In this document: piece by piece, positions 5,394-54,481 of the stretch
Numbering within the stretch: position 1 is the stretch's first letter
Layout of the letters: each line of letters starts with the position of its first letter
IMG/VR virus record: IMGVR_UViG_3300034031_000030
Location: 1-58,438 of that record
From: a virus
Length of the DNA stretch: 58,438 bases
Reading direction: 5' to 3' (one strand)
Program-made: the position numbers and the translations under genes
The notes under the pieces: model-generated
Told to the model about the DNA's origin: nothing
What the model saw: the letters and a program-made list of their open reading frames with translations, nothing else
The model's database searches: none

Positions 5394-6323
5394 ATGCTCT
5401 CTTTATACGGACACTTCACGGCCTCTAAAGCAGGCATCTCGACACTGGACGATGTGAAAATAGATATCGACCGAGTGAACAAGGCGACTGGAGAAGTTGT
5501 CGCTTTCGTGAGCAACGCGGTAGTCACGTCCCCAGGTTCGCTCTCACCGCTCCGCAACGGGCTGTACCGATACGCAATCGCAAACCCTGACGTTCGTGCC
5601 TATGACTATCTGGGCACATTCAAAACAGCCAGCGCGAGTGTCGATTTGAAACACGTTCCAAGTTTGCGTCAGGAATATGTCGATTCGCTGACCGTTACGA
5701 ATGGCAACGTGAGTGTTGGCACCAACAATGACAAAACGGGCTACGCTCTGGCGACGCCACCCGCGACGCCGGACGATGTTGCTGAGGCAGCAACGGTCAT
5801 CGTCGGCGCGGTCGAGACGCGGGCCGCGCCTAGCGATGTGCAGGAAATCGTTGATGGTATCGAATTCCCCGCGCTTGATCTGGGCGCTCGCGGCGAGAAG
5901 ATCGACAACATCCTCGCCAAGCTGCAAGCGGCTGCGCCCGGTAATGCGCCTGTCCTCGCGGTCCCCAATTCCGGGACTCCTGGCATGGTCAATCTTGCGG
6001 TTTCACTCAGGCATGGCAAAGTGCCAGTCAGGAACGCACTTGTCACGGTATCGATGGTGGAAGAAGGCTTAGTGGCTGTTGATGGAGCCTACGAGGTCGA
6101 GAAATCCTACACGGGCATGACAAAAGATCACACGATCGACGGCGTTGTGCACAAGGGGCTGGCGCTTATCGAAGTGTTTTCCTCGGTCAAGTTGAAGAAT
6201 GCCGGCTACGAAGGCTTGTACACGGTCGGCGCCATCGGGGTGGAGCGCAATGTCTGGGTTCCCGAGGGCGGCGGCGCTTTGACCCTATTGGGCGAAGTAG
6301 ATCCCACGCCACCCGCTCCCTAG
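5394..6323 (+). CDS. Hypothetical tail-fibre-associated protein
   Basis: ATG lies 2 nt after the upstream TAA. It is the last gene of the plus-strand late block and is followed by a perfect 38-bp palindrome. Confidence 0.6.
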   Translation: MLSLYGHFTASKAGISTLDDVKIDIDRVNKATGEVVAFVSNAVVTSPGSLSPLRNGLYRYAIANPDVRAYDYLGTFKTASASVDLKHVPSLRQEYVDSLTVTNGNVSVGTNNDKTGYALATPPATPDDVAEAATVIVGAVETRAAPSDVQEIVDGIEFPALDLGARGEKIDNILAKLQAAAPGNAPVLAVPNSGTPGMVNLAVSLRHGKVPVRNALVTVSMVEEGLVAVDGAYEVEKSYTGMTKDHTIDGVVHKGLALIEVFSSVKLKNAGYEGLYTVGAIGVERNVWVPEGGGALTLLGEVDPTPPAP

Positions 6324-6360
6324 CAAAAGCGTACGGTCGAATTCGACCGTACGCTTTTGC
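6323..6360. terminator. Class I palindromic element; candidate bidirectional intrinsic terminator
   Basis: Perfect 38-bp palindrome GCAAAAGCGTACGGTCGAATTCGACCGTACGCTTTTGC lying between convergent genes. Confidence 0.65.
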
Positions 6361-6363
6361 TTT

Positions 6364-6423
6364 CCGGCAAGTAGCGGCAAGTTACCGGCAGAAATACCGG
6401 CAATTCCGGCAATTATTGCCAAA
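6364..6423. repeat. Phased array of five or six CCGGCA(A/G) heptamers at about 10-11 bp spacing
   Basis: Copies start at 6364, 6375 (CGGCAAG), 6385, 6397 and 6406, with a partial copy at 6417. The reverse complement TTGCCGG shares the TGCCG core with the iterons at 25811 and 37636. Confidence 0.8.
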
Positions 6424-6449
6424 GAGTGACTCAAAACTGCAGGAGTTGC

Positions 6450-6986
6450 TCAATCACACCAGCTGCGCGTTTCCCAGCACCCCGGCTTCTGATCGCAGTC
6501 GGCGTGTGGGCAGGCGAGGACACACGCAGCTCGATGCGCAGCGTAGTGAACCTTGAACTCTTCAGGATTATGGCTACCATGGCCGTGATCCATGGATTTG
6601 CAGAATTCGATAAGCCGATCGATGTCAGCGTTGGCCTGTTCTTGGACATCGCTTTCCGGCTGGCGCGTCTTCAGGGCGACGAGCGCTGTCGCAGTTTGGT
6701 CCCACTGCCCGAGAATGATGCGCATGGCCAGTTCCGTGTCGTCGCGCAGCGCACGCGCGGCGGCCTTGGTTTCGACCTTCCCGAAAACGCTGTCTCCCAG
6801 CCGGTCGAGGACTTTGAGCGCCTTGCCAACGCGGTGATCCACCAGGCGTGTCGGCTCGACATTCAGCGCAGCGAGCCTTTCCCTGAAGCGCTCCGCTACA
6901 GCCGGGCTCATCCCGGACTCACGCGCCGCATCAAGAATGGCATCGACGTTGACGACGACAGTGTTGGAGTGCATAAGAAATTCCAT
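6450..6986 (-). CDS. Hypothetical protein with a C-terminal His/Cys cluster
   Basis: The minus-strand ORF has helical-protein-like composition and ends with HGHGSH...ACPHADCDQKPGC. A mirror ORF on the plus strand (6426..6989) cannot be excluded. Confidence 0.45.
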   Translation of the reverse strand: MEFLMHSNTVVVNVDAILDAARESGMSPAVAERFRERLAALNVEPTRLVDHRVGKALKVLDRLGDSVFGKVETKAAARALRDDTELAMRIILGQWDQTATALVALKTRQPESDVQEQANADIDRLIEFCKSMDHGHGSHNPEEFKVHYAAHRAACVLACPHADCDQKPGCWETRSWCD

Positions 6987-7061
6987 TGAACCAATAACAA
7001 AAGCAGGTTCAATAACGCCGGTCCAATAGAATCGGCCCTGCGCTGCTACACTTGGCGAAAA

Positions 7062-10874: not shown

Positions 10875-10915
10875 GAGTACGGTCGAATTCGACTCATCGA
10901 CGATCGACCGTACTC
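10875..10915. terminator. Class I palindromic element with an expanded loop
   Basis: GAGTACGGTCGAATTCGA-ctcatcgacga-TCGACCGTACTC, flanked by an A-run and followed by a T-run. Confidence 0.55.
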
Positions 10916-11002: not shown

Positions 11003-11191
11003 AACAACTGTAATTCTGGCAATAAGTTAGCGATTAAATAAAAAGGGAGCCAGCCCCCTGGGCCGACCCCCTCGCAACTGAGGTGCAAGCATACCACTCC
11101 CCGTTTCACAGCAGGGACAATAATTTAGCAAATAGATGGAATGGCTTCGGCTATATCTATAGTTATGACACTAACTTAGCAAGGAGTTGCA

Positions 11192-11640: not shown

Positions 11641-11675
11641 AAAAGAGTACGGTCGAATCCGACCGTACTCTTTTT
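11641..11675. terminator. Class I palindromic element; bidirectional terminator candidate
   Basis: AAAAGAGTACGGTCGAATCCGACCGTACTCTTTTT lies between convergent genes. Confidence 0.7.
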
Positions 11676-13669: not shown

Positions 13670-13695
13670 AAGTACGGTCGAAATCGACCGCACTT
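13670..13695. terminator. Class I palindromic element
   Basis: AAGTACGGTCGAAATCGACCGCACTT followed by TTTGC. Confidence 0.5.
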
Positions 13696-13728: not shown

Positions 13729-14103
13729 ATGGCTAATTATGGACAGTGCAATAAGTGTGGCGAAAGTAACCCTTATACGGCGGTTATTTGTAAAGGATGC
13801 AATTCGCGTCTTCCATGGGCACAAGCAGCTAAAACCGCACAACAGATCGGGAATGCCCCGACGCGCCCGTTGCCCCCAACACAGCCGACCGCTCCCCTTC
13901 CATCACAACCTCCAGTTTCTGTCCCGTCAATTTTTGCGTCACGCGCTCATAAATCGGAGGAAAGAACGCCCGTTGTCGTTCAGCAAGGAGGCTGTCTTTC
14001 CGGGCTAGGTATGGGTATGGGAGCTGGCGTCGGCTGCTGCTGCCTCGCGCCGATCCTGCTCTTCGTCTCATTCGTCCTTCTTGCAGCTATTGGTGCCCGA
14101 TGA
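13729..14103 (+). CDS. Zinc-ribbon protein with a Pro-rich linker and a C-terminal transmembrane anchor
   Basis: CNKCG...CKGCN. PTRPLPPTQPTAPLPSQPP linker. C-terminal GVGCCCLAPILLFVSFVLLAAIG. Confidence 0.6.
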   Translation: MANYGQCNKCGESNPYTAVICKGCNSRLPWAQAAKTAQQIGNAPTRPLPPTQPTAPLPSQPPVSVPSIFASRAHKSEERTPVVVQQGGCLSGLGMGMGAGVGCCCLAPILLFVSFVLLAAIGAR

Positions 14104-14130
14104 AAGTACGGTCGAAATCGACCGTACTTT
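14103..14130. terminator. Class I palindromic element
   Basis: AAAGTACGGTCGAAATCGACCGTACTTT overlaps the stop codon of 13729..14103, between convergent genes. Confidence 0.65.
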
Positions 14131-14158
14131 CGGTCTGTGCGTCTATTTAGCAGCCACT

Positions 14159-19419: not shown

Positions 19420-19435
19420 TAACCATCACAATTAA

Positions 19436-19461
19436 GAGTACGGTCGAACTCGGCCGCGCTC
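19436..19461. repeat. Class I palindromic element, degenerate copy
   Basis: GAGTACGGTCGAACTCGGCCGCGCTC has three stem mismatches. Confidence 0.5.
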
Positions 19462-19471
19462 TGGAGATTCT

Positions 19472-20190: not shown

Positions 20191-20531
20191 TGAAAAGTAC
20201 GGTCGAATTCAACCAGGCCATCTTGTTGGCCGAACATACGGCGCGCGTCGCCATTCTCTTCTGGTTCCTAGTAAGATTCGTCATTATCGGCGGATTGCTC
20301 TGGGCTACTGTGCGCTTTGGCCCGACGCTGCGGTGTCAGATTTCTGACACCGCAGCGTTGATCGAGCGGCTGTTTGAACGGCGTCTGGCCACTCGCCATG
20401 CCCGGCTGCAAGATGCGTCGAAAGAGCGGTCTCAAGCGCACACGCAGCGTTTGAGCAACGACGTGATGGATGAGACGCACCGGCTTTATGTCGAGGGCAT
20501 GAAGAAGGAGAGGTTCCGTGTCGCGCGGTAA
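20190..20531 (+). CDS. Hypothetical membrane protein; its N-terminus is encoded by a class I half-copy (MKSTVEF)
   Basis: TAATGA coupling. Hydrophobic stretch VAILFWFLVRFVIIGGLLWATV. Confidence 0.55.
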   Translation: MKSTVEFNQAILLAEHTARVAILFWFLVRFVIIGGLLWATVRFGPTLRCQISDTAALIERLFERRLATRHARLQDASKERSQAHTQRLSNDVMDETHRLYVEGMKKERFRVAR

Positions 20532-20985
20532 CACCGTGGGCGGCTGGCGCCTCCGCAACAGACTCAAGCAGCGATGCCCGCACTGCGGCGCTGTCATTTG
20601 TCTGGTGCAGGCCACGGACAAGGAAAGCCCGCCGCGAGACACACCGATGGTTTATGTCACCGTTCCCGCGCGCGATCCGACAGTGCCTCTGATGGACGTG
20701 CGTGGGCCGGTGCATCCCTGCCCGGTGGTGCCCGAAAACGCTGTGCCGTACGTCTGGGCCTCGCAGTTGTACAGTCGGCTTTATCTTTATGTTCCTCACG
20801 AAACACCTGCGGACGAAGAAGAGGGCAAAGAGCTATCTACCGAAGTTACGAAGACCGAAGGCACAAAGAGTACGGTCGAAAGCGACCGTACTCAAGCGCA
20901 GCCGATTCAGGAAAAGCATGAAATACAAAGTCACCACGATGCGCACCGATGGCAAGGAGAGCAAAGAGTTCGTCGATACGCCTGA
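20518..20985 (+). CDS. Hypothetical zinc-ribbon protein
   Basis: AGGAGAGG RBS then GTG. It contains CPHCG. A class I element (20868-20893) is read in frame as KSTVESDRT. Confidence 0.5.
   Translation: MSRGNTVGGWRLRNRLKQRCPHCGAVICLVQATDKESPPRDTPMVYVTVPARDPTVPLMDVRGPVHPCPVVPENAVPYVWASQLYSRLYLYVPHETPADEEEGKELSTEVTKTEGTKSTVESDRTQAQPIQEKHEIQSHHDAHRWQGEQRVRRYA
20868..20893. repeat. Class I palindromic element inside a coding frame
   Basis: GAGTACGGTCGAAAGCGACCGTACTC. Confidence 0.9.
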
Positions 20986-21136
20986 AGCCGTGGTGAATAT
21001 GGTTTCCGCTCATTTGCTGGCTGCTCTGCGTTGTGGCTTTCCTCTTTCCATCGCCTGCGAGCGCGTGAGGATGGGCAAGGCGCTCGATGTCAAAGTTTTG
21101 CCGACCGCCCGGGAGGATGAATGCCAGACGAAATAG
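20918..21136 (+). CDS. Hypothetical small protein
   Basis: ATG at 20918 (MKYKVTTMRTDGKESKEF...). Confidence 0.45.
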   Translation: MKYKVTTMRTDGKESKEFVDTPEAVVNMVSAHLLAALRCGFPLSIACERVRMGKALDVKVLPTAREDECQTK

Positions 21137-21998: not shown

Positions 21999-22011
21999 AC
22001 CTGGTTCATAT
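21993..22011. repeat. Class II palindrome (core TGAACCTGGTTCA)
   Basis: gacTGAACCTGGTTCAtat, immediately followed by a class I hairpin. Confidence 0.8.
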
Positions 22012-22013: not shown

Positions 22014-22040
22014 GAGTTACGGTCGAATTCGACCGTACTC
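22014..22040. terminator. Class I palindromic element
   Basis: GAGTTACGGTCGAATTCGACCGTACTC. Confidence 0.55.
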
Positions 22041-22487: not shown

Positions 22488-22513
22488 AAGTACGGTCGAA
22501 TTCGACCGTACTT
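22488..22513. terminator. Class I palindromic element
   Basis: AAGTACGGTCGAATTCGACCGTACTT followed by TTGG. Confidence 0.6.
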
Positions 22514-22560
22514 TTGGAGTTTTGAACGGTCGAATTCGACCGTACTTTTGGAGTTTTGAA
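22493..22560 (+). repeat. Exact 34-bp tandem duplication (CGGTCGAATTCGACCGTACTTTTGGAGTTTTGAA x2)
   Basis: 22493-22526 is identical to 22527-22560. Confidence 0.95.
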
Positions 22561-23445: not shown

Positions 23446-23465
23446 GTACGGTCGAGATCGACCGC
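23446..23465. repeat. Class I palindromic element (variant loop GAGATC)
   Basis: GTACGGTCGAGATCGACCGC. Confidence 0.7.
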
Positions 23466-23480
23466 ATCGAGGAGGATTGT

Positions 23481-24020: not shown

Positions 24021-24030
24021 CATCGATGCA

Positions 24031-24068
24031 AAAGAAGAGGACGGTCGATTTCGACCGTACTCTTCTTT
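24031..24068. terminator. Class I palindromic element with long A/T-rich flanking arms; bidirectional terminator candidate
   Basis: AAAGAAGAGGACGGTCGATTTCGACCGTACTCTTCTTT lies between convergent genes. Confidence 0.65.
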
Positions 24069-24080
24069 TGCTTTCTATCC

Positions 24081-34500: not shown

Positions 34501-36686
34501 GCGGCACCAACACGCGTTATTACATCGGAGTACGGTCGGGCGGAGATCCCAAAGATGCTGAGAAGGGACTGACCCAGAAGTCGCAAGAAACCGAGAAGGT
34601 AAAGCTCGTTTCGTTCGATGAGGCCGGGAAGCTGCTCAACAGTCCGCGCGATCAAAAAGTGCTCGCCGCGCTCAAGGCGCATTTAGGTGAACCGGCCGTT
34701 GCAGCTGCAATCACGCCGTCTGGCCATGTCACGGTGCAGGGACATAAGCTCGATGTCGATCACTCGAAACCGGTGTCAGTCACCGACGTGGACGACTTCA
34801 AGGCGCAGGGCATTAAGTTCTCGACCAATGGCGAAACCTCGGTCAAGAAAGCGATCACCGACGGCACGATCAAGTCGCATGGCCACCTGGTTGAATTGAT
34901 GGCCATGACGCAGGCCGCGTCCAAGGCCCACGGTCATACCAGCGTCAACAACACGGGCTTCCAGCAGGCAGTCAAACACGCCGGCGTCGAAGCCGCGCTC
35001 GACGCAGCTCATCAAGGCGACGCCGACGCAAAAGCATTCAGCGCACATCTGGAAGCGCATTCCTATCACTCGCTTCTGGCGCAGGCCGAAGCCGCCAAGG
35101 CTGCTAAAGCGCAGGCCGACGCAGCGCGTTACCAAAACCAGATTCCCGTGTTCCACGCGGCTTCTCCAGCGGAACATAAGCACAAGCAGATTCCGCTTGG
35201 AAAAGCGGTCAAGAAGGGCTACAACGACGGCGCGCTGTACGAAATGCCCGACGGCCAGCAGAACTACATCAAGACGCCGAAGAAGCCAGAGGTCGCACAT
35301 AACGAGCATCTCGCCAACGCGATTTATAAAGCGCTTGGCATCTCGGCGCCCGAGTCGAAGGTGTTCACCGATGGCGGCAAAACGCAGTACGCCTCGAAGC
35401 TCATCCCGAACCGGGGCGAGTTAGGCGACCACGGCATCGATGCCCATATCGCGCAGGACATCCTCAAGGGCTTTGCTGCCGACGTGCTGCTCGGGAACCA
35501 CGATGTTTTAGGAAACGGCGACCGCCCGCTCTCCAACGTCGTTGTGGGGCATGGCGCCAACGGAAAGACGACCGCGCACCGCATCGATAACGGCGGCGCG
35601 ATTCTCTTCACCGGAACCGGCAGCAAGAAGCCCGAGTCCGTCAAGAAGAGCCTGACCGAGTGGACGAAGTTTCCCACGTCGAACCCCAACTACGCGAAGG
35701 TGTTTGCTGCGGCCGGTCATACCCGTTCCGAGCAGGTGCCAGGCATCGGTTTGCAAATCAAAGCGGTTGTCTCGCTACGCGATTCGCATGGCGGCTGGGA
35801 CAAATTCATCGAGCAGGCCGCGCCTGGGATGCCGGCAGCGCAGAGAGCGCAGACGGCGGAGATTCTCGAAACCCGCACGAAGCTGCTCGAAGACAAACTC
35901 AAGTCTCTGCCGGGCGCGAACTCGCTCGTTGGCCAGCGCAATTTCGTTTACGCGCCGAACTCGAAGCAGGAACACGCAATCATCGCCAAGCAGAAGGGCT
36001 TGCAACTCACGAAAGACGAGCGCGATGCCGTAAGAACGCACAAAAGCTCGCCGGTTTATAATAGTGGTTTGCTGGGCAATGCCGCTTTGAGCGCAAGCAG
36101 CCAGCAGAAAGCACAGCACCTCGATTCGGCGATAAAAAAGGCGGGCGCAATCGGCGTGGATTCGGTTCTCTCTCGCAACCTCACACTGGCACCTCACGAA
36201 GTGGCCGCGTTCAAGCTAATGCAAAAAGGTGACATTATCGCGGCGACGCCGACACACAACAGCACCTCCGACACCAGCGGCACGTTCGCTGGACGAAACG
36301 TGCAGTACTGCATTCTGGCTCCTGCTGAAACACCAGGCATCGCGGCGCGGCCAATCACCGGTCTGCACGCGGGAGAAACGGAAATCATTCTGCCTCGCGG
36401 CTTGAGCTATCGCGTCGTCGCGGTAACGGAACCAGGCCATCCCGACGCACCGGAAACGCCGCAGGGCTGGACTTGGAACAGTTCGGCGCAAGTCCGATTG
36501 ATCTTGGAACCGATCATCCCCGGCGTCAACGATTATGAGGGACATGGAAAGGCGCACTATACCAGCGAGCAGTCCATCAAAGATAAGGTGACTCAGGGAG
36601 GTGTCAAGATTGCGAACGCGCTGCAGCCGCCGAACCTGAGCAACCTACCGGATCATATCCACAATCACCTTTATCACTCACCGTAA
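29976..36686 (+). CDS. Giant portal-fusion polyvalent protein (portal-like N-terminus, then 2H phosphoesterase, repeats, Nudix, kinase-like and ADP-ribosyltransferase regions)
   Basis: An uninterrupted 2236-codon ORF with a GAGG RBS. It is the only portal candidate between terL and the protease/MCP. Domain motifs are listed in the sub-features. Confidence 0.9.
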   Translation: MAIKKFWNWNKDKQNAIVSTVDPAPIADSIAVEPPVETALATVGVSPEQSAEVKRLFADLTAEIQRAEESGRDAHQLRQAFAYLTNDPLRFQTPHDPRFRPYTPLSVDALRIIARSVDVSADCIAYIKREVTKVPLAVVPRDSADTSKATLKAKEEAEEWMSESGGLGGYGIERSVFEGQIIDDLLIVGAAAILYEFETVGEMHDNSPSQVRAIDGGTIRPLVTAQGFPIGYDGEAFEQWIQGVPCARFTRDELAYISLPSFSRTDSVYPMSPTENAALQLYTLMKIDEWNRTWLTDGSGYRRWMKLNPDVTPEQASAWIDIINLQTQGIAAERQKMGVLPGEMTGEESRKDQDFEGFEHTRINRICKSYGVNPASVGQHSQQYKDSQDAAMDSSREGPVAEILTLRELLYNALLKRKGWGCLKVTEDIPAPNETPTEKAARLKTLIESGQITVNGALSEYDLDPVDGGDQILVSSTVIPLSRLLAAPAPGETPPGDEPTGDDDKGGGPDDDKPGGGTPTPKGGKEVSRAEESTVEFEPSRLDRTPLPEPSGSLADEIAETKHTYSCAMLVLDDGSAERARAFASALIDPAHLAGDGLVKESHVTVLYGLETDVAAELAALIDSANIGPITVEILGVSIFGDSVQNDGTTYDVVKLDVAPSGELLRLRELLKQLPYHETFGDFKPHITLAYVKPGAGADYLANVCSLTGTVLSFDALSFSNRYDEQTSIALKSGDAQAVARALGQWERKALNRVARGQSPVCEFDSDVLDDEMCSNVLSRLEGATGKESIRAAFAVCRVLDANGHSHGKDGKFDGGLGIAGLSQAPQHHDITTVDAATGAKKNTQLTTHGDSVTPEQAVEWAEHIGIPDHAAKAIGDMVKGGQISDDHGLVDAIKKAAEPGHASINVVGPQPGPDATAPATPDPASGPAAHSFLIHEWLQPQKTGVWMSKKGTVSIPSYGDAVTPESAEDWAKHVGFPPQTVDAIKDAVSLGLITDDHQLAKALGDISKVVHVGGLTHKTAAKEILSGQPVDQVLATAQQAKEALQAATAIGMAGVTPPAPTPAAPPAPVVATPPTALPVATPEDWDAFAQHFGINGGLSTNANNAIVESAAAGEIEAKHVSPVLSVATQMALDEGKPYVNTGHVKKSIWMLKNGHLGTDGVNAKLPDPAGPAIVVPSGPAAASTLTSPKEWQKHVKSLGSGFPPVSSAVLDQAIKQGKVAPEEIEEVLNLATGYAQQTGWKAVKPQHLTKAIGSVAASKISAPPSSAVAPEDYVSFVQSVNVGISDVPPKIADIIQAHLNDGTLHPTQVGDVLTHMVAHALADNSTQIFPDHAHKAIGEVKNGLSPQVALPTAAPASPAVPPVLSPAVVSPPAAPAAAGAPTAVAPAAAPGSTVLDPHAVAAGTPALKTVGKLDDAHFQSIPDKTLSEPALPPLKPGQKRATGIIVVEPDGKVWIYEPKGHYAGYEHTFSKGGHEDGLTLQQNAHKELYEELGLTANILSCLGDFETSGTNTRYYIGVRSGGDPKDAEKGLTQKSQETEKVKLVSFDEAGKLLNSPRDQKVLAALKAHLGEPAVAAAITPSGHVTVQGHKLDVDHSKPVSVTDVDDFKAQGIKFSTNGETSVKKAITDGTIKSHGHLVELMAMTQAASKAHGHTSVNNTGFQQAVKHAGVEAALDAAHQGDADAKAFSAHLEAHSYHSLLAQAEAAKAAKAQADAARYQNQIPVFHAASPAEHKHKQIPLGKAVKKGYNDGALYEMPDGQQNYIKTPKKPEVAHNEHLANAIYKALGISAPESKVFTDGGKTQYASKLIPNRGELGDHGIDAHIAQDILKGFAADVLLGNHDVLGNGDRPLSNVVVGHGANGKTTAHRIDNGGAILFTGTGSKKPESVKKSLTEWTKFPTSNPNYAKVFAAAGHTRSEQVPGIGLQIKAVVSLRDSHGGWDKFIEQAAPGMPAAQRAQTAEILETRTKLLEDKLKSLPGANSLVGQRNFVYAPNSKQEHAIIAKQKGLQLTKDERDAVRTHKSSPVYNSGLLGNAALSASSQQKAQHLDSAIKKAGAIGVDSVLSRNLTLAPHEVAAFKLMQKGDIIAATPTHNSTSDTSGTFAGRNVQYCILAPAETPGIAARPITGLHAGETEIILPRGLSYRVVAVTEPGHPDAPETPQGWTWNSSAQVRLILEPIIPGVNDYEGHGKAHYTSEQSIKDKVTQGGVKIANALQPPNLSNLPDHIHNHLYHSP
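31571..31611. repeat. Class I palindromic element (expanded loop) in frame at the portal/extension boundary
   Basis: GAGTACGGTCGAATTCGA-gccatcgaga-CTCGACCGTACTC is translated as ESTVEFEPSRLDRT. Confidence 0.9.
31640..32110 (+). other. 2H phosphoesterase (LigT-like) domain signature
   Basis: Two H-x-T-x motifs, HVTV (31781-31792) and HITL (32031-42), about 83 residues apart. Confidence 0.65.
32531..33940 (+). repeat. Five tandem degenerate ~50-aa repeats in protein (a sixth lies at 34775-34925)
   Basis: TPEQAVEWAEHIGIPDHAAKAIGDMVKGGQISDDHGLVDAI / TPESAEDWAKHVGFPPQTVDAIKDAVSLGLITDDHQLAKAL / TPEDWDAFAQHFGINGG... / SPKEWQKHVKSLGSGFPPVSSAVLDQAIKQGKV... / APEDYVSFVQSVNVGISDVPPKIADIIQAHLNDGTL... 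Confidence 0.7.
34290..34690 (+). other. Nudix-like hydrolase domain
   Basis: GIIVVEPDGKVWIY... and a Nudix-box variant GGHEDGLTLQQNAHKELYEELGL (KELYEELGL in place of REUxEExGU; the first Glu of the box is not conserved). Confidence 0.6.
35200..35650 (+). other. Protein-kinase-like (HipA / PI3-4K-like) segment
   Basis: NYIKTPKK, EHLANAIYKALGI, LLGNHDVLGNGDRPLSNVVV and RIDNGGA resemble the Lys, alphaC, catalytic-loop and DFG-like elements. Speculative. Confidence 0.35.
36000..36480 (+). other. R-S-E type ADP-ribosyltransferase domain (C3/VIP2/Alt-like)
   Basis: LTKDERDAVRTHKSSPVYNSGL, VLSRNL (Arg), HNSTSDTS (S-T-S) and HAGETEIILPRG (E-x-E) occur in the canonical order and spacing. Confidence 0.7.
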
Positions 36687-37012: not shown

Positions 37013-37044
37013 AAAGAGTACGGTCGAAATCGACCGTACTCTTT
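37013..37044. terminator. Class I palindromic element
   Basis: AAAGAGTACGGTCGAAATCGACCGTACTCTTT followed by TT. Confidence 0.65.
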
Positions 37045-37591: not shown

Positions 37592-37619
37592 GGAGTACGG
37601 TCGAATTCGACCGTACTCC
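37592..37619. terminator. Class I palindromic element
   Basis: GGAGTACGGTCGAATTCGACCGTACTCC, a perfect 28 bp. Confidence 0.6.
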
Positions 37620-37729: not shown

Positions 37730-39931
37730 ATGAGCAACGCAACCAATTCCTCGCCCGCCCCAAAATCTGAAAACTTTTTCATTCCGTTCGCGCCTCTGTC
37801 CCGTGGCGACCGCGATAACCGCATCGTGCGTGGCTATTGCTACACCACGGCGCGCGTGCGTGGCGACCGCTACAACCTGAAGCGCTCCGCTTTGGAGCGT
37901 TCGGCCAAGCGTTACATGGAAATGCCGTGCATCCGTGCGATGCACCAGCAGATCGCAGCCGGCAAAGCTCTCAGCGTTTCTTTCGATGACAAGGGCTGTT
38001 TTATCGAAGCCTTCATCAGCGACGATAAGGAATGGCAGAAGTGCGTTGATGGCGTGTATCGCGGCTTTTCGGTTTATGGCCATCCCCTCATCGCACGCGG
38101 AATGGACATCGAGGAGTTCGACTGGATTGAAACCAGCCTCGTCGATCGTCCCAAAGACGCCGGCTCTCTCTTTTCCGTCGGGCGCGTTGAAGGTACGGTC
38201 GAATCCGTCACCACCATCGAGCTTCCCGAAGATGCGACCGATGAGCAGGTCGAACTCGCCCGGTGCGAAGTCTCTTCATCTTACGTTGTCCCCTCAGAAG
38301 AAAGTGAGGGAGACATCGACGAATCGACCGTATCTCTTGGCCCGGTCGAGCGCGGCTACAACCCTGCCCAACCACGGGACGGCGAAGGCAAATGGACCAT
38401 CGTGCGCGGTCATCGCGTGAGCACAACCGGTGCGGCCATTACCCACGACCACATCCATCATGCCGTTGCCAAATTCGGACTTGGCGACTTAGCCCAGAAG
38501 AAACTGCTGCAGGCCCACGCCGACGGCAAGCTCACGAACGACCATCACCTGTACCGCGCCATCGCTCACGCGACGGATGCGCATGATACAGCGAGTGGCG
38601 TGACAACGGGCTCCCACAATCCCGGACCGTGGCACTGGGACGAAGCCATCAAGGCTCATGGCCACGGCGGAACCCACGAAGAAAAGCGCACCTGGGGCGC
38701 ACCTCACGCTGACGACTACAAGCACCTTACCGACAAGGAGCTGGCGACTCACCTCACCGAGAAGATCGCAGAAGCTCCGGTCAAGGCTCACAAGGATCTC
38801 GTCAAAGGCGACCGCGTGCTGCACGGCGGTCGATTGGTCGAGATCACCCACGTTAAGCAGCGCAAGGACAAGCCCAATACGGTTAAGGCACACGTCGTTC
38901 ATCCCGACTCCGGGAAGTTGGAAGAAGGCTCTCTGCACTCCGTTTCGCACTCCAGCGATTCATTCAGCGGCGCTAACCCTTCGACCTTCCACATCCCCAC
39001 CAGCCTCGTCATGGGCGCTGCTGCCGAGTTGCGTCGTCGCAAAGGTTTGTCACCTGTGAAACGCGGGGAAGAATCTGAACCTGGTTCACAAATCGACGGC
39101 GAAGGCGTTGGTGAAGCCAGCGCCGAAGCTGCAGGCGATGCTGTCGAGCGCGCTATCACTTCCGAGACTCCGGGCTTACCAGTCCGTGAAAACCTTGAAG
39201 GTGAAATCGTTCGCGGTGACTATGACACCGAATCGGTTGAAGCCGAGATCGACGGGTTGATCGAAGCCCTGTGGGATGCCTACGACGGTGAAGAAAGCGA
39301 ACCCCTTGTTCGCCGCGCTGTTGCGGCCGCTCTCGCGGTTCTTAATGGCGATTCCGCATCCGCATCGAGCGTTGCCCGCTCTGAAGGCGAAGCCATCGGC
39401 GACAACGCTCCTAACATTGAAACCACTTGCTCGGTTGTTGATAACGGCATCAGCAACGACATCGAGCCTAACCCGGACATTGTTCAACTGGTTGCACGCG
39501 CCGAAAGCGCTGAATCCGAACTTGAATCCGTCCGCCGTCTCGCAGACGAATCATTGTCCACAGTCCGCGCCTCCGAAGAATCGGCCTTGAGCCGGTTGGA
39601 AGCTGCAGAAGCGACAGTGACCGAGCTTGCAGACGCGCTCAAGAAACAAGAAGAGGAAATCGCAAGCCTTCGCGCCGTTCCCCTGAACGCCAGTCCTGTC
39701 CGCCGTAGTGAATCCTCTGAATCGACCCAGACCGGGGCAGTCGCAGCTCCGCGCGCGTTTGCGGCTAACGCAATGCTGGACACGACCCAGAGCAACGCGG
39801 CCCGACGCACAGCGCTGCAGACCGAATTTCAAGAGCTTCAGCGCTCTCTGCACACCGAACCCAGCACCGCCAAGCGCGACGCTGGAGCATCTCGCCTCAT
39901 CGTCATCCAAGACGAATTGACGCGGCTGTAA
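37730..39931 (+). CDS. Prohead protease fused to a scaffold-like C-terminal region
   Basis: The N-terminal ~170 aa resemble HK97-family prohead proteases (FFIPFAPLSRGDRDNRIVRGY...AMHQ...GFSVYG...ETSLVDRPKDAGS). The C-terminus is acidic and coiled-coil (SELESVRRLADESL...VTELADALKKQEEEIASLRA). It lies directly upstream of the MCP. Confidence 0.7.
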   Translation: MSNATNSSPAPKSENFFIPFAPLSRGDRDNRIVRGYCYTTARVRGDRYNLKRSALERSAKRYMEMPCIRAMHQQIAAGKALSVSFDDKGCFIEAFISDDKEWQKCVDGVYRGFSVYGHPLIARGMDIEEFDWIETSLVDRPKDAGSLFSVGRVEGTVESVTTIELPEDATDEQVELARCEVSSSYVVPSEESEGDIDESTVSLGPVERGYNPAQPRDGEGKWTIVRGHRVSTTGAAITHDHIHHAVAKFGLGDLAQKKLLQAHADGKLTNDHHLYRAIAHATDAHDTASGVTTGSHNPGPWHWDEAIKAHGHGGTHEEKRTWGAPHADDYKHLTDKELATHLTEKIAEAPVKAHKDLVKGDRVLHGGRLVEITHVKQRKDKPNTVKAHVVHPDSGKLEEGSLHSVSHSSDSFSGANPSTFHIPTSLVMGAAAELRRRKGLSPVKRGEESEPGSQIDGEGVGEASAEAAGDAVERAITSETPGLPVRENLEGEIVRGDYDTESVEAEIDGLIEALWDAYDGEESEPLVRRAVAAALAVLNGDSASASSVARSEGEAIGDNAPNIETTCSVVDNGISNDIEPNPDIVQLVARAESAESELESVRRLADESLSTVRASEESALSRLEAAEATVTELADALKKQEEEIASLRAVPLNASPVRRSESSESTQTGAVAAPRAFAANAMLDTTQSNAARRTALQTEFQELQRSLHTEPSTAKRDAGASRLIVIQDELTRL
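39073..39091. repeat. Class II palindrome copy inside the protease/scaffold CDS (reads EPGSQ)
   Basis: atcTGAACCTGGTTCACAa. Confidence 0.75.
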
Positions 39932-39960
39932 CCCATCAAATTTAGTTGGAGAAATTTAGA

Positions 39961-41390: not shown

Positions 41391-41987
41391 ATGTCAAATT
41401 TTCGCGGGATCGCATCCCCTAACACCCTGACGAGCCAGGAAACGCTCGACAAAAGCACGCGCGAAGTCACCGGCGACGGTGGCGCTTTCTTGAAGTTGAA
41501 GAATTGCATCCGCGTTCTCGCCGTCTTCATGTCCACGGCCAGTGGCCGCATGGAAATCCCGATGAAGGAAGAGCGTCAGGTGATGGTTTCCAACACCGAT
41601 AACGCTCCTCTCGAAACCCAGGTGGAAGATCTCGTCCACCTCGTCACCGAAGGCTACGATATGCCTGTCTTGCTGCGTTCGGAACTCTCCAACAACGGCA
41701 AGTGGCAGAAAGGCGTGACCTTCATCATCGCCGGCGAATGGGCCGATGATGATGCCGCATCGAGTACGGTCGAACCCGATCCCAACGCGGGCGGCGAGAA
41801 CGGCGGCTCGAACAGCGATGACAAGGAAGATGTCGGCCTCGCGCCGGAGCTTCTCGAAAAGATCATCGAACTCGGCGGCCCTGAAAAGGCCATCGAGGCG
41901 ACGAACGAGCAGTTCAACGCGGTCGGTATTACCGGCCCGGCCATCACCAAAGTCCGCAACGCACTCAAGAAGATCGTCGGCGCGTAA
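41391..41987 (+). CDS. Hypothetical head-associated protein
   Basis: AGGAA RBS. Contains a class I half-copy read as SSTVEP. The function is inferred from position only. Confidence 0.55.
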   Translation: MSNFRGIASPNTLTSQETLDKSTREVTGDGGAFLKLKNCIRVLAVFMSTASGRMEIPMKEERQVMVSNTDNAPLETQVEDLVHLVTEGYDMPVLLRSELSNNGKWQKGVTFIIAGEWADDDAASSTVEPDPNAGGENGGSNSDDKEDVGLAPELLEKIIELGGPEKAIEATNEQFNAVGITGPAITKVRNALKKIVGA

Positions 41988-44579: not shown

Positions 44580-44620
44580 GAGTACGGTCGAAATCGAGCA
44601 TTCCAAATCCGACCGTACTT
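44580..44620. terminator. Class I palindromic element with an expanded loop
   Basis: GAGTACGGTCGAAATCGA-gcattccaaa-TCCGACCGTACTT followed by TTATTTT. Confidence 0.6.
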
Positions 44621-45666: not shown

Positions 45667-45698
45667 GAGGAGTACGGTCGAATTCGACCGTACTCCTC
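45667..45698. terminator. Class I palindromic element, perfect 32 bp
   Basis: GAGGAGTACGGTCGAATTCGACCGTACTCCTC. Confidence 0.6.
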
Positions 45699-46298: not shown

Positions 46299-46522
46299 AG
46301 ACGCTCGAAGGCCAAAGCGGCCCGACAGGCACGCCCGATCAGGAGCGTTTTTTCGAGAAGCTATGGAAAGACTTCTGGCTTCTTGAAGGCGCGCCGAACG
46401 CGATTTCAGGAATAGGGAAAAGCCGCCGCTGGCAGGAAGGTATCAGCGTTTTTGCTTTCACCCTTAAGCGGCACGAGCTGTCGCTTCAACAACGTCTGCT
46501 CGATGCGTGGACGAAAAAATGA
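45771..46522 (+). CDS. Tail assembly chaperone -1 frameshift product (lambda GT-like)
   Basis: Heptamer T_TTT_TTA at 46277-46283 in the zero-frame register GAT TTT TTA. The -1 frame is open for 79 further sense codons up to the TGA at 46520-46522, and there is no ATG in that frame. Confidence 0.65.
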
Positions 46523-46523
46523 G

Positions 46524-46588
46524 TGCGGTCGAATATCAACTATCTATCAATTCGAAAAAAACTGATAGATAGTTGATATTCGACCGCA
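46524..46588. terminator. Class I-related long hairpin (26-bp perfect stem)
   Basis: TGCGGTCGAATATCAACTATCTATCA - 13-nt loop - TGATAGATAGTTGATATTCGACCGCA. Confidence 0.65.
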
Positions 46589-46600
46589 TACCGATTTCAG

Positions 46601-46757: not shown

Positions 46758-48899
46758 ATGCCAAATACTCCCATTCCCGCCAATGCTTCTGCCGCCGCAC
46801 TCCCGACGCCGACACAACCAGCGGCGCTCACGATGCTGGCGAACGTGCTTGAACGCAGCCTTACCAAAGCCTTTGTTTCGAAAGCATTCTCCAACGCGGT
46901 AAATCCCGGACGATCCGTTTCGTCTGTTGGCACGAGTCCACTCGGCCAATTTTTGTCGCAGATTCAGTCCCGTGCCTCCCAGCCTTTAGTCCAACTCGGG
47001 CAACAGCGTGCCGGTATCAGTCGCTCCGTCAAGACGCTTTTCAGCGCGCCACCTTCTACACACTCTGTGGTTTCCGTGGGCAGCACAGTGCTGAATCGTT
47101 TTCTGACGCAAACCCAGGCCCGCACGTCACAACCAGTGACCCAAGTCACGCAAAGCCACGCGCAGTTGCTCACAGGCATCAATCGCTCCGTGCAGGCCTT
47201 AAATGACCGCTGGCGCCTCGCAGGGCAGGGCAGGGACGCAATGGGGCGAGTCACCGGAATAAACAGCCCGGTTGGGCGCGTTGCACAAACCGTGGGGCTG
47301 GGACCGGCTTATCGCACGGGCCGCACGGCGCTGCAGCAGCACGTCACGCCTCACCTCACCTCTGGCTCGGCTCATCTGTCCAGCTTGTTTGCCGGTGCGC
47401 GCAGTTCGCTTCAAAACATCGGCACCCGCTGGAACCAGAGCGGGCAGCAGCGTGATGCTCAGGGCCGTTTTCTGGGTAATCAGCCGAACTTCGGTTCGCG
47501 CGTGTTTCAGACGATGGGCCTCGGCGATTTATATAACGCCGGGCGCAGTGCCTCTGGAACCGGTGGTGGTGCAGTGGCAGCCGGTGGAGCCGCTCTCAGC
47601 TTCTTGACCAATCGAAGCGGTGGCGGCGGGCTCCTCGGTTTAATTCTCGCGCCGGTAAAAATCGCTGCCGGCATTTTTGCCGGTGCGCTTGCCGTCGGCT
47701 CGGGCGCCCTGTTTTTGTTCGTTCGAAGCGTCCAGGGGATGACGCGAGAGATGGTCCAGGTCGCACGCGAAATCACAGCGATCCGTAACAACACCGGGCG
47801 TGGCATCGGCGACTCGATGAAGGGCTACTTCGGCCTTCGTGCTGCGGGATTCTCCGGCGCGTCTGCGTCGGGCTTTCTGTCGCAGGCCGGACCGCTCGGT
47901 GACGCACGATCGCGCGCCTGGAACCTGCCATCGATGACCGATCCGGGCTTCGCGCTGCGCCTGGCCGAAAAGAGCCAGGGCATGAGCTTTTTTGGCCGTA
48001 AAGCGATGCTGGAAAGCATCAGCGGCGGTCAGGCTTCGCCCGAATTGCTCCAGCTCGCCAACTCGCGTCCCGAGTCCATCAAGCGTGAACAGGGATTTCT
48101 TGCGCGGACGCAGAATGCGCTCGGCGTCACGCCGGAAGCGATTCGTCGTTTGTCCGACGAGTGGCCGCTCTTTCAGAACCGCGTATCGATGTTCACCGAA
48201 ACCGTAAAGATGCGTTTCATCTCCTCGATGCTTCCTTTGATGGAGCAGGGGATGGACCGTCTTTCGGTTGTCCTCGAAAGCAACTCCGGGCGCATCAGCA
48301 AAGCGATCGAAAATGGCACGCGCTGGCTTTACGTTGATTTGCCCGGTCATCTGGTGACGGGCGCCCGCGTCGGGCTAAATGCCATCGAGATGATTTCGGA
48401 AGGCTTCTTCAATTTTGCGGACGGCCTTGCCGGTTTCTTGCGCGCGATCGGGGAAGGGCAGAGCGGGCTGTTTTCTTTCTTCGAGTTCATCGGCAGCGTC
48501 ATCGACTCGATGATGGCCAGTGCAAAGTTCTTGGGCTTGACCGACAAACAGACCGACATCGCCGGCGATATGCAGAACTGGCGGAACTCCGGCACTCCTG
48601 AAAACTTGGCGAAGAACATCGAAGCCTTCACCCAGTCCGGGCGCGATAAGACGGGCAGCGCCCTCGATTGGGCGCGCGGCGTTCTAGACGAAACGGATAA
48701 GTTCCTTGGCTCACGCGATCAGCGCGACGCTGATTTCTCATCGAGTCTGAAGGAATTGACGGCTGCCACAAAAGATGGTCATGCAAAAATCGTCGGCGCG
48801 ATCGAGAAAACCAATGAAAGTGGACAGGGCACCGACAGCGTTTTGCAGGCTCTCAAAGGCCACATTGGAAAGGAATCGTTTATTGTGGCTTCTCGCTAG
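46758..48899 (+). CDS. Tail tape measure protein
   Basis: 713 aa, positioned after the chaperone frameshift pair. It has internal sequence repeats and a central hydrophobic Gly-rich block (GGGLLGLILAPVKIAAGIFAGALAVGSGALFLF). Confidence 0.85.
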   Translation: MPNTPIPANASAAALPTPTQPAALTMLANVLERSLTKAFVSKAFSNAVNPGRSVSSVGTSPLGQFLSQIQSRASQPLVQLGQQRAGISRSVKTLFSAPPSTHSVVSVGSTVLNRFLTQTQARTSQPVTQVTQSHAQLLTGINRSVQALNDRWRLAGQGRDAMGRVTGINSPVGRVAQTVGLGPAYRTGRTALQQHVTPHLTSGSAHLSSLFAGARSSLQNIGTRWNQSGQQRDAQGRFLGNQPNFGSRVFQTMGLGDLYNAGRSASGTGGGAVAAGGAALSFLTNRSGGGGLLGLILAPVKIAAGIFAGALAVGSGALFLFVRSVQGMTREMVQVAREITAIRNNTGRGIGDSMKGYFGLRAAGFSGASASGFLSQAGPLGDARSRAWNLPSMTDPGFALRLAEKSQGMSFFGRKAMLESISGGQASPELLQLANSRPESIKREQGFLARTQNALGVTPEAIRRLSDEWPLFQNRVSMFTETVKMRFISSMLPLMEQGMDRLSVVLESNSGRISKAIENGTRWLYVDLPGHLVTGARVGLNAIEMISEGFFNFADGLAGFLRAIGEGQSGLFSFFEFIGSVIDSMMASAKFLGLTDKQTDIAGDMQNWRNSGTPENLAKNIEAFTQSGRDKTGSALDWARGVLDETDKFLGSRDQRDADFSSSLKELTAATKDGHAKIVGAIEKTNESGQGTDSVLQALKGHIGKESFIVASR

Positions 48900-48925
48900 A
48901 GTACGGTCAAAATCGACCGTACTCT
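48898..48925. terminator. Class I palindromic element
   Basis: AGAGTACGGTCAAAATCGACCGTACTCT overlaps the tape-measure stop codon. Confidence 0.6.
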
Positions 48926-52982: not shown

Positions 52983-52999
52983 TTTCGTTCACATTTCCC

Positions 53000-53221
53000 A
53001 TGGATTTACGTCACAGCCAAAACGCGGTCGTGGCGCGGGCCGTCTCCCAGGCGGCGACCGCCAATCACACCCGCTCCCGCGTCTCCAGCGCTGCTTCACA
53101 TAGCGGAGCCATCAACACCCTGCGAAACCCTGATTCCATCGTTGAAGAGGAACTGGGTGCGCCTGCCGAAGCCTTGCGCTGTGGCGTGCAGGCGATTGAA
53201 GACGCGGTGCTCGGGCCGTGA
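53000..53221 (+). CDS. Hypothetical small protein
   Basis: ATG directly after the class II site. Weak RBS. Confidence 0.35.
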   Translation: MDLRHSQNAVVARAVSQAATANHTRSRVSSAASHSGAINTLRNPDSIVEEELGAPAEALRCGVQAIEDAVLGP

Positions 53222-53245
53222 GGCCCTGTCATCCAGGAGTTCCCC

Positions 53246-53506
53246 ATGACGCTCAGAGATTACTATCTGTGGGAAGCAGAAGGACGCCCGCTTCCGCAGG
53301 CCAACTATCCCCACTGGGTCTGCCTCGATTGCGCTCTGGCCGCCGGTGGACGTGCGCCGACGCTGGCGACATTTCACAACGATCAGTGCGACGTTTGCAA
53401 ACAGGAAAAAGCAGTTTCACAGCCGCGCGATTTCGGCTACCCGCAATTTGAAATTTCGGCTGAATGCTCGGTCGAAGAATCCAAACTTTCTCCTACAACA
53501 CCATGA
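53246..53506 (+). CDS. Hypothetical small Cys-containing protein
   Basis: AGGAG RBS. Contains CLDCA...CDVCK. Confidence 0.55.
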   Translation: MTLRDYYLWEAEGRPLPQANYPHWVCLDCALAAGGRAPTLATFHNDQCDVCKQEKAVSQPRDFGYPQFEISAECSVEESKLSPTTP

Positions 53507-54453
53507 GCTACGGCATAAAAACAAATTACCTTCTGTCCACGCCTGTCTCCCCTGTGGACCTGAACCGACGTGGCGATGTGCTGCAGGCGCAGCTGCCCGG
53601 TGCTTTGCGTGCGGCCGGCGGCCGTCCGGGCGTCTTGCCTCCTGTCGATTACGACTTCTCTGCAGCTCCGCCGATTCTGGACCTGACCGTTGATGACGAC
53701 ACAGTGACCGCCGGCGCTGCACTCATCAACAGCGAAACAGCCGGCGCATTCATCTTCGTGTCCGTGCCTGAACCGGGTTTGCTTATCCCTGATCGCGGCG
53801 ATGGATTGTATCTGCATCTCGCATTGCGCCTGGTGGCCGATGGCTCGATCGGCGGTCCTAGCGATACCAAGGGAACGGATTCCAGGCGCGGAGCCGTGCC
53901 CGTTCTGCTGATTTCAGAGGATGCGGACGAAACCGACGCTCTGCTTCTGGCTGCGTGGAACGACGTGGACGAAAAGTGGGATGATGCGCGCGAGTTCGTC
54001 TCCGTTGCGGCTCTCGCTCTTGCCCTGACGCAGATTCAAAGCGACCTCGGATATGACGAAGACCAACGCGCCAAAGGCACTGTGGCCGCGCGGCTCGACG
54101 GTCTAGAAGACACAGGTACTGAACCGGGCGGAGACGATGTGAGCCTCCAGATTCAGGTCAATGCCCTGAAACTCACAGTGAATGACCTACTCAGGCGCGT
54201 CGGCATTCTTGAAGCGGCGTCTGGAGAAGGGGCTGAATTATTTCCCCAACCGTTCGACACCCTCTCCGACAACTTGATGCTTGTCGCAGCAACCACCTTC
54301 GAGCTAAGCCCGCACGGCGTCGAGCGCCCACAAATGGCGATCGTGGGTCAGAATTTTGGCCATGCACAGAACAGCACTCCAGACTTTACGCCCGATACGG
54401 GCGACGTTCGTGAGCTGCCGTTTGACCCTGCGACGGGATTGTTCGGCACCTAA
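53503..54453 (+). CDS. Hypothetical tail fibre-associated protein
   Basis: ATGA coupling. Coiled-coil-like LQIQVNALKLTVNDLLRRVGILE. Confidence 0.55.
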   Translation: MSYGIKTNYLLSTPVSPVDLNRRGDVLQAQLPGALRAAGGRPGVLPPVDYDFSAAPPILDLTVDDDTVTAGAALINSETAGAFIFVSVPEPGLLIPDRGDGLYLHLALRLVADGSIGGPSDTKGTDSRRGAVPVLLISEDADETDALLLAAWNDVDEKWDDAREFVSVAALALALTQIQSDLGYDEDQRAKGTVAARLDGLEDTGTEPGGDDVSLQIQVNALKLTVNDLLRRVGILEAASGEGAELFPQPFDTLSDNLMLVAATTFELSPHGVERPQMAIVGQNFGHAQNSTPDFTPDTGDVRELPFDPATGLFGT

Positions 54454-54458
54454 TCAAC

Positions 54459-54481
54459 AGCGGTCGAATTCGACCGGACTC
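54459..54481. terminator. Class I palindromic element (variant arms)
   Basis: AGCGGTCGAATTCGACCGGACTC followed by TTTTCCC. Confidence 0.55.

Follow-up and report, generated by a model that had tools for sequence, protein, structure and literature searches.

A 26-bp palindrome iterated along a 58-kb viral contig is a repeat of one Abditibacteriaceae lineage and is not phage-specific

The window analysed here is an entire metagenome contig of 58,438 nt (IMG/VR virus record IMGVR_UViG_3300034031_000030, positions 1 to 58,438), and the element in question is a short palindrome, class I, that recurs along it. An earlier note on the same DNA had counted about 20 near-identical copies, which was borne out (all 20 coordinates hold a full, degenerate or truncated element), and had taken them for a family of the phage's own, perhaps read by phage early proteins. 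That attribution did not hold: the palindrome was plentiful in the host chromosome and occurred in unrelated mobile elements too, and class I is a repeat of one Abditibacteriaceae lineage rather than a phage-specific one. With moderate confidence, it is interpreted as an iterated palindrome of the host lineage resembling repetitive extragenic palindromes (REPs) and their hairpin-forming doublets (REPINs), copied into the chromosome and resident mobile elements, homogenised by templated conversion, and acting as a terminator or RNA-end hairpin according to context. The causes listed in the earlier note (protein recognition, a mobile miniature palindrome or gene conversion) still cover the live options.

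Definition and distribution of the class I palindrome

The class I unit was defined by alignment of 85 copies from contigs other than the window. It is a 26-bp palindrome, RAGTACGGTCGAWWTCGACCGTACTY, built from two head-to-head 12-nt half-sites (consensus RAGTACGGTCGA-WW-TCGACCGTACTY). The earlier observation that the stem sequence is conserved beyond its ability to pair was upheld, and the extent given for it, 9 bp, was replaced by the 26-bp unit. Outside the 26-mer no conserved sequence was present, the 5' flank being A-rich and the 3' flank T-rich, and in 45% of the aligned copies the stem was prolonged by 3 to 18 copy-specific pairs. The half-site core is asymmetric, and its flanks were conserved even in single half-sites retrieved by the bare 9-mer. 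Matches in the window were absent from Rfam 15 at the family gathering score, and the class I 22-mer had no match in a literature search.

Enrichment over shuffled sequence was confirmed by three counts. The exact pattern GTACGGTCG-N(4-20)-CGACCGTAC occurred 11 times in the window and 0 times in 100 dinucleotide-preserving shuffles. The class I 9-mer, with at most one mismatch, occurred 59 times against 10.9 expected. Half-sites scored with a 16-nt weight matrix (threshold of at least 12 bits) numbered 43 against 0.13 in shuffles; the matrix was trained on half-sites of other contigs only and is hence independent of the window. Densities in the window were 0.26 full copies per kb and 667 half-sites per Mb.

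A metagenome scan for the exact core gave at least 100 loci, and among the matches listed 77 carried the same extended palindrome, with loops AATT (49), AAAT (16) and ATTT (13). DNA-level homology to the window was not found among the listed loci, and weak protein matches to it were confined to ParA, resolvase and integrase. Housekeeping and metabolic genes adjoined the element on many contigs (ThiC, PlsX, TrmD, NusG, Lgt, an EF-Tu-type GTPase and CysH), as did genes for SpeH, FucI, GH35, a LacI/GntR regulator, a P-type ATPase, a PilC-type T2SSF protein and an M48 peptidase. Other element contigs were plasmid-like or mobile and held many copies (ParB, DnaB with primase, Tn3 transposase, NrS-1-type primase-polymerase, DUF3854). 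The exact core was also found on one IMG/VR contig of 139 kb, with several copies and half-sites; this phage is not related to the window, and its genes include those for a T4-type terminase, an RNA ligase and an SNF2 protein.

Host genomes, which the earlier note had proposed to search, carried the element. In GTDB the extended palindrome was present in two Abditibacteriaceae metagenome-assembled genomes (MAGs), one copy lying 17 nt after a ribonucleotide reductase gene and another near SbcC and glutamine synthetase genes. On metagenome contig L098, nusG is flanked by one class I copy on each side, and its NusG is 88% and 82% identical to NusG proteins named as Abditibacteriaceae, 59% identical to Abditibacteriales and less than 55% identical elsewhere. 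Further nusG neighbourhoods were fetched by protein identity alone and not by the element. The closest of them, L160 (NusG 96% identical to L098; 2.9 kb), held class I in all five gaps of rpmG-tRNA-secE-nusG-rplK-rplA plus one single half-site, and its 41-nt nusG-rplK gap is nearly all class I element. Beyond the copy by which each was anchored, 28 short contigs of one sample averaged 0.26 full copies per kb, equal to the window value; apart from L160, these and the other contigs behind the host density were mostly selected for carrying class I.

No class I was found in the neighbourhoods of more distant nusG genes, namely L161-L163 (NusG 88% identical to L098; 1.5-3.2 kb examined), L149 and L150 (87%; 16-20 kb), L151 and L152 (82%; about 20 kb) and L153 (70%; about 20 kb of a 3.6-Mb contig). 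Absence at these NusG identities indicates that the expansion is recent and confined to one sub-lineage. The four closest phage relatives (L045-L048), fetched via the large terminase (TerL, 60-69% identical), likewise carried no class I, so that a search of related phages, also proposed in the earlier note, did not turn up the family.

Copies in the window, hairpins and half-sites within genes

Copies and half-sites are listed below by position in the whole stretch. Gene boundaries are crude longest-open-reading-frame (ORF) calls, palindromes are given without strand, and class II denotes a second palindrome of the window that is described in the last section.

168..191: near-complete palindrome AGTACGCTCGAAATCGAGCGCAGT within ORF 3-2069, with a compensated G>C / C>G pair; new relative to the first list
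1092..1113: near-complete palindrome GTACGGTCGATTGCGACCGGAA within ORF 3-2069; new relative to the first list
6322..6361: full copy whose 20-bp stem includes 9 copy-specific extra pairs, overlapping the stop of ORF 5370-6323; both tails T-rich
10875..10915: full copy with about 15 extra nt between the arms, 30 nt past the stop of ORF 9660-10844
11641..11674: full copy with A4/T4 flanks between convergent genes; -23.6 kcal/mol, z -6.8
13670..13695: T-rich tail; the arms have one mismatch (CGACCGCAC)
14102..14131: full copy flanked by convergent ORFs; the minus-strand gene 14159-14518 ends 27 nt away
19435..19462: degenerate, with right arm CGGCCGCGC; the start codon of ORF 19472-19801 lies 9 nt downstream
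20868..20893: full copy without a downstream T-tract; loop AAAG
22014..22040: copy with one left-arm mismatch (TTACGGTCG), 18 nt past the stop of ORF 21462-21998; class II palindrome just upstream (21996-22008)
22488..22513: full copy, first unit of a tandem duplication of about 34 bp, 6 nt past the stop of ORF 22101-22481
22524..22545: truncated duplicate, second unit of the same duplication
23446..23467: degenerate; right arm CGACCGCAT, loop AGAT
24028..24071: stem extended by 11 copy-specific pairs; lies between convergent genes (gaps of 7 and 9 nt), adjoining the serine-resolvase gene; both tails T-rich; -31.4 kcal/mol, z -8.1
31571..31611: copy with about 15 extra nt, within the 2236-aa portal-fusion ORF; in-frame translation ESTVEFEPSRLDRTP
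37013..37044: full copy flanked by A/T runs; ORF 37055-37564 follows 10 nt downstream
37592..37619: full copy without T-tract; class II palindrome immediately upstream (37575-37587)
44581..44619: copy with about 15 extra nt between the arms and a strong T-tract; class II palindrome 15 nt downstream
45667..45698: full copy without T-tract, -27.7 kcal/mol, 12 nt past the stop of ORF 44674-45654; class II palindrome 22 nt downstream
46520..46599: variant whose class I arms GTGCGGTCGAAT / ATTCGACCGCAT enclose an unrelated second palindrome at the apex
48898..48925: overlaps the stop of ORF 46758-48899; one mismatch in the arms (GTACGGTCA), no T-tract
54457..54480: degenerate copy AGCGGTCGAATTCGACCGGACT, 3 nt past the stop of ORF 53464-54453 and 8 nt ahead of the next start codon
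17741..17749, plus strand: single half-site within the ParB-like gene
20194..20209, plus strand: single half-site AAAGTACGGTCGAATT (28.7 bits) without a matching second arm
28755..28763, minus strand: single half-site within TerL, conserved GDRT motif
30028..30043, plus strand: single half-site within the portal gene, codons STVD
34149..34164, minus strand: single half-site within the portal-fusion ORF, codons STVL
34530..34538, plus strand: single half-site in a conserved NUDIX-region block
38190..38205, plus strand: single half-site within ORF 37574-39931
41761..41776, plus strand: single half-site CGAGTACGGTCGAACC within a coding region
56890..56905, plus strand: single half-site within ORF 54489-56969, codons STVD

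The loop GAATTC was present in 9 copies, and three copies (10877, 31573 and 44582) have enlarged loops, both as first described, the enlargement being about 15 nt. At 22488-22560 a stretch of about 34 bp (AAGTACGGTCGAATTCGACCGTACTTTTGGAGTTTTGA), made up of the element with its T-rich tail, is directly repeated in tandem, and the second unit is truncated. The palindrome nested in 46520-46599 has 15-bp arms (ATCAACTATCTATCA...TGATAGATAGTTGAT). The tail-fibre block was not free of the element as had been supposed, the near-complete copies at 168-191 and 1092-1113 lying in ORF 3-2069. The interval 24070-31570 does lack a full copy, as had been noted, yet holds half-sites at 28755 (TerL) and 30028 (portal gene).

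Full copies folded as RNA had free energies between -20 and -32 kcal/mol, and their z-scores against shuffles ran from -5.6 to -8.1. The placement of copies just past stop codons was reproduced: about 13 of the 20 listed copies start between -2 and +30 nt from the upstream stop codon, and those at 11641, 14102 and 24028 lie between convergent genes. Of 18 window copies, 9 had a T-rich tail (at least 5 T in 8 nt, by direct count) on at least one side, as did 45 of 85 elsewhere; the background is 5.7% per side, and the enrichment about five-fold. A simple terminator scan, which needs a T-run directly after the maximal stem, called few copies. The copies with a U-tract, about half, are most likely intrinsic terminators, some of them bidirectional, as judged from hairpin, position and T-tract; the copy at 11641..11674 looks like a bidirectional one. 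The earlier reading of A/T-run flanks as a mark of intrinsic termination is plausible for about half of the copies (9 of 18 with a T-rich tail); the rest have no such tail. Class I was also present inside ORFs (168, 1092 and 31573) and in the operon-internal secE-nusG-rplKA gaps of L160. Copies without a tail, and those in the secE-nusG-rplKA cluster, are not efficient terminators and more likely give REP-like 3'-end protection or attenuation. Given the U-tract-free copies, the operon-internal host copies and the intragenic half-sites, termination is no full explanation of the family. Ordinary terminators with unique stems also occur in the window (e.g., 11043-11073, 25066-25082 and 36978-37003).

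Coding sequence of the window held 15 half-sites, whereas 0.55 were expected from synonymous-codon shuffling, which never gave more than 3 in 300 shuffles; some of the 15 are owed to ORF starts called too far upstream and about ten are secure. ORFs of other contigs held 16 against 3.1 expected. Coding half-sites fell into few reading frames (STV[ED], VRS and DRT), and their flanks matched the consensus (AG ahead of the 9-mer, then A, then A/T). They occurred in both orientations relative to transcription with no skew evident, which argues against a function at the level of RNA. Comparison with relatives traced two of them to substitution. The half-site at 28755 arose by two synonymous changes (CGC>CGT and ACC>ACT), GAC CGC ACC in four relatives being GAC CGT ACT in the window. 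The half-site at 34530 arose by four point substitutions without an indel (GGCGTGCGCACG in relatives, GGAGTACGGTCG in the window), with a change of GVRTG to GVRSG in the protein. The findings point to a conservation force that acts on DNA and stems from the host lineage.

Full copies bore signs of insertion. The copy at 31573 (31571..31611) lies in a hypervariable, gap-rich linker after the portal domain that differs in all relatives, a foreign palindrome occupies the apex of the copy at 46520, and the element is tandemly duplicated at 22488-22560. Copy-specific outer stems fit insertion at the tips of pre-existing hairpins. For full 26-mers in nearly every gap point mutation is insufficient, and these must have been copied in.

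Mechanism, alternatives and related systems

Under the favoured interpretation, REP/REPIN-like spread would have placed the palindrome at tolerated sites, often at the apex of existing hairpins, and short-patch templated conversion would then have homogenised the copies and seeded intragenic half-sites. Once transcribed, a copy would fold as a stable hairpin at the gene end. Copies with a U-tract would act as intrinsic terminators, some bidirectionally, and the remainder as REP-type hairpins, that is, as weak attenuators or protectors of mRNA 3' ends. The uniform stem would be owed to a host-lineage process that recognises or copies the half-site in DNA and not to phage regulation.

Several points weigh against this interpretation. 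No gene for a REP-associated tyrosine transposase (RAYT, Y1), an IS200/605-type transposase or a GIY-YIG protein was found by any copy (50 small and about 27 large window ORFs and about 95 ORFs of element contigs). According to published accounts, REPs and REPINs lie outside genes and are inherited mostly vertically (PMC3116915; RAREFAN preprint 10.1101/2022.05.22.493013), unlike class I, which is present in phages and plasmid-like contigs and has half-sites within genes. Half-sites that arise by synonymous substitution are a better fit to recognition by a protein than to transposition. Clearly chromosomal contigs of other samples carry few extra copies, which indicates that density differs among hosts, and the host densities come, L160 apart, from short contigs chosen for holding a copy. 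Termination itself was deduced from hairpin, position and T-tract.

Recognition by a host protein that reads the 12-16-nt half-site RAGTACGGTCGAAWT as DNA, for instance a competence receptor, as for the DNA uptake sequences (DUS) of Neisseriaceae and the uptake signal sequences (USS) of Pasteurellaceae, is the strongest of the alternatives and is nonetheless judged unlikely. Biased uptake and recombination would enrich the half-site, inverted pairs would be co-opted as terminators, and resident phages would gain the half-site by co-evolution. The asymmetric core, the flanks conserved in singles retrieved by the bare 9-mer, the presence of both orientations, the inverted pairs at gene ends with T-tracts and the coding copies made by synonymous or conservative substitution in few frames are all expected of such a signal. 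The half-site density of the window (667 per Mb) is of the kind seen in temperate Pasteurellaceae phages, which reach about 750 USS per Mb (PMC6776037). Other iterated palindromes, TGCAAGTACTTGCA in a sister genome and GGGAGTACTCCC in a related phage, are dialect-like. Spelled out, the half-site would be a self or uptake signal of one Abditibacteriaceae lineage, an independently evolved analogue of DUS and USS, in a phylum not known to have any such signal, that phages and plasmids might mimic through synonymous codons in terminase and portal genes, with TGCAAGTACTTGCA and GGGAGTACTCCC as possible dialects of sister lineages; this fuller version is likewise doubtful. Pairs far exceed singles (about 20 against about 10-12 in the window, 5 against 1 in L160), and a perfect 26-mer in almost all gaps lies beyond the reach of point mutation alone. 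The motif is missing from sister lineages at 87-88% NusG identity, whereas DUS and USS span whole families. Phage density is at least as high as host density, and the motif is present in the 139-kb phage with the T4-type terminase, whereas large, likely lytic Pasteurellaceae phages are USS-poor (PMC6776037). The only competence-related gene on element contigs was of the PilC type, on one contig.

A phage-specific regulatory hairpin, in which class I copies would be (anti)terminator or RNA-processing sites for a phage protein coordinating early and late transcription, is very improbable. Gene-end positions and strong hairpins would suit it, as would the five or six junctions where class I is paired with class II, which is phage-specific. 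The same 26-mer, however, lies between host ribosomal-protein genes, by housekeeping genes and on unrelated mobile elements, and it is missing from the closest phage relatives. Half-sites in both orientations inside genes are left unaccounted for, and no candidate binding protein or nuclease was detected in the window.

No more credible is a signal of the Chi type, in which a host end-processing helicase-nuclease would read the half-site, and selection would favour its presence in both orientations on the chromosome and on incoming linear DNA alike. Enrichment in differing phage types, the 139-kb phage included, coding copies made by synonymous changes, and inverted pairs that supply both orientations agree with it. 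Known Chi sites are 5-8 nt long, shorter than the conserved motif of 12-16 nt; such a signal would need far fewer copies than the 2 or so per kb reached locally, and orientation skew is not evident.

DNA-binding sites of mobile elements, either centromeres or operators of the ParB/KorB type or crossover sites of serine or tyrosine recombinases, are equally remote. The layout of class I (two 12-bp half-sites round a 2-bp centre) may resemble that of hix, gix and res site I. Among the window genes are those for ParA, a ParB-like protein, a serine resolvase and an integrase, the resolvase gene abuts the copy at 24028-24071, resolvase and ParA homologues recur on some other element-rich contigs, and density seems higher on plasmid-like than on some chromosomal contigs. 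Copies in every secE-nusG-rplKA gap and by many housekeeping genes are at odds with such sites, hundreds of active recombination sites would harm a chromosome, parS-type sites are few and clustered, and the ParB-like proteins of the window and of L139 have no detectable relation. As the main explanation, parS or recombinase sites were ruled out by the chromosomal distribution.

Class I departs from each known family compared in at least one testable defining feature. With the REP/REPIN-RAYT systems of Pseudomonas and Enterobacteria (PMC3116915, PMC3337134) it shares a short, highly iterated intergenic palindrome, inverted doublets that form hairpins, lineage-specific expansion and copies between genes of one operon; it differs in that its halves abut round a 2-4-nt centre without a spacer, in that it also lies inside genes and is common on phages and plasmid-like contigs, in its much higher local density (up to about 2 per kb), and in that no RAYT gene was seen among the ORFs scanned. 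With DUS and USS (PMC3630211, PMC2397512, preprint 10.1101/2025.10.24.684340) it shares an asymmetric motif of at least 10-12 nt in both orientations, inverted pairs that form terminators, coding copies made by codon choice in preferred frames, host-like density in temperate phages (PMC6776037) and lineage dialects. It differs from them in the dominance of pairs, the absence from close sister lineages, the full density in phages, one of them large, and the phylum, Abditibacteriota. Ssn-related hairpin repeats of Neisseria (NTS/dRS3, cut by the GIY-YIG single-stranded DNA nuclease SsnA; PMC11893778) are likewise hairpins of about 20-30 nt in hundreds of copies clustered round genes, and a small host enzyme with a modulating effect on genome dynamics recognises them at the DNA level (PMC11893778); the NTS consensus CGTCATTCCCGCGMAVGCGGGAATCYRG, however, has no similarity to class I, and no GIY-YIG gene was found among the window ORFs. 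HIP1 and other highly iterated cyanobacterial palindromes (PMC5861425, PMC4390886) are palindromic oligomers over-represented by orders of magnitude and intragenic through codon choice, yet HIP1 is an 8-mer mostly of coding DNA, whereas class I is mainly a 26-bp intergenic hairpin. Intrinsic (Rho-independent) terminators share the G+C-rich hairpin past a stop codon, the U-tract (in about half of class I copies) and, in some, A/T flanks on both sides; class I differs from them in its one shared stem sequence, in the half of its copies without a U-tract, and in its copies within operons and ORFs. Promoter-early stem-loop (PeSL) cassettes of T4-type phages are phage-specific stem-loops repeated beside promoter-like repeats at gene junctions. 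Class I followed by class II at five or six junctions of the window resembles them; class I is host-wide, however, and only class II is phage-specific.

What is unusual about class I is its very high local density, its presence on phages and plasmid-like contigs, and the half-sites gained in conserved phage genes by synonymous change. It can serve as a host-lineage tag by which uncultured viruses are assigned to an Abditibacteriaceae lineage, as USS profiling does for Pasteurellaceae phages. It also marks a sequence-specific force at work on DNA in a barely studied phylum, and the 26-mer is a substrate with which a transposase, nuclease, uptake receptor or templated conversion could be identified. 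More generally, conserved 'terminators' in a metagenomic phage should be compared with host DNA before they are read as phage regulation.

The window as a phage, class II and other repeats

The gene set of the window is that of a temperate, phage-plasmid-like element and includes the following.

7062-8240: integrase (tyrosine)
9660-10844: ImmA/IrrE-type regulator
16712-17986: ParB-like protein
17983-18627: ParA
24081-24863: serine resolvase
about 27549-29958: small and large terminase
29976-36686: portal fused to NUDIX and other domains
39946-41304: capsid-like protein

Together, ParA, the ParB-like protein, the serine resolvase and the tyrosine integrase may serve plasmid-prophage maintenance. 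The portal is part of a single 2236-aa ORF (29976-36686) that also holds 2'-5' RNA ligase-like, NUDIX and ADP-ribosyltransferase-like domains; the ORF is likewise fused in L046 (2025 aa) and is split into 2-3 genes in L045, L047 and L048. TerL of the window is at most 38% identical to that of any deposited phage, and Megablast of 6 kb of the window against INPHARED gave no match. Essentially all window ORFs were scanned with Pfam and PHROGs, and no GIY-YIG, HNH, Y1 or IS transposase domain was found; no candidate nuclease or transposase acting on class I is encoded in the window.

The class II palindrome, TGAACCWGGTTCA, occurred 12 times in the window against 0.09 expected (8731, 15399, 21996, 37575, 39076, 42029, 43817, 44634, 45720, 46604, 48937 and 52967). 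Most copies lie 30-50 nt upstream of late-gene starts, often 15-50 nt from class I. None was found in 148 other loci examined, which marks class II, unlike class I, as phage-specific; it is probably an operator or promoter element of the structural genes.

Three sets of matches were rejected as class I. In the MAG CAZEJJ01 (labelled Enterobacterales), a repeat of more than 70 bp is present on more than 20 contigs (L004, L006, L008, L013, L015-L018, L020-L022, L025-L027, L030, L032, L034, L037, L038, L040, L041 and L043), with the centre GTACGGTCG-CTGG/CCAG-CGACCGTAC; it has the same 9-bp arms as class I, but its loop and long conserved flanks differ, and it is probably an unrelated family. On low-GC metagenome contigs (0.40-0.48; L049, L069, L078, L084, L093, L109, L111, L119, L131, L135, L138 and L147), GTACGGTCG units stand in tandem and inverted (e.g., TAGCCGACCGTACTTAGTACGGTCGTAGCCGACCGTACTTAGTACGGTCG) in a different repeat that has only the 9-mer in common with class I. 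Single matches in Streptomyces and other high-GC genomes fit chance.

Related genomes carried iterated elements of their own. An IMG/VR scan for the sister-lineage core CTGCAAGTACTTGCAG gave single chance-level matches only. In L153 the core TGCAAGTACTTGCA was found in 4 exact copies and 1 variant in 20.5 kb (1516, 8784, 9937, 13074 and 15030), at the tips of terminator-like hairpins whose outer stems differ from one another. Within 21.5 kb of the phage relative L046 (TerL 62% identical), five copies of the 12-bp palindrome GGGAGTACTCCC were found, each in a called gene (5778, 6698, 13070, 15674 and 21336). AGTACT is also central to the L153 core, and class I has AGTAC...GTACT as its outer ends. 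L045 and L048 share a different conserved hairpin, AAAACGGCCAAC...GTTGGCCGTTTT (L045:14693-14736; L048:14986-15015 and 20960-20988).

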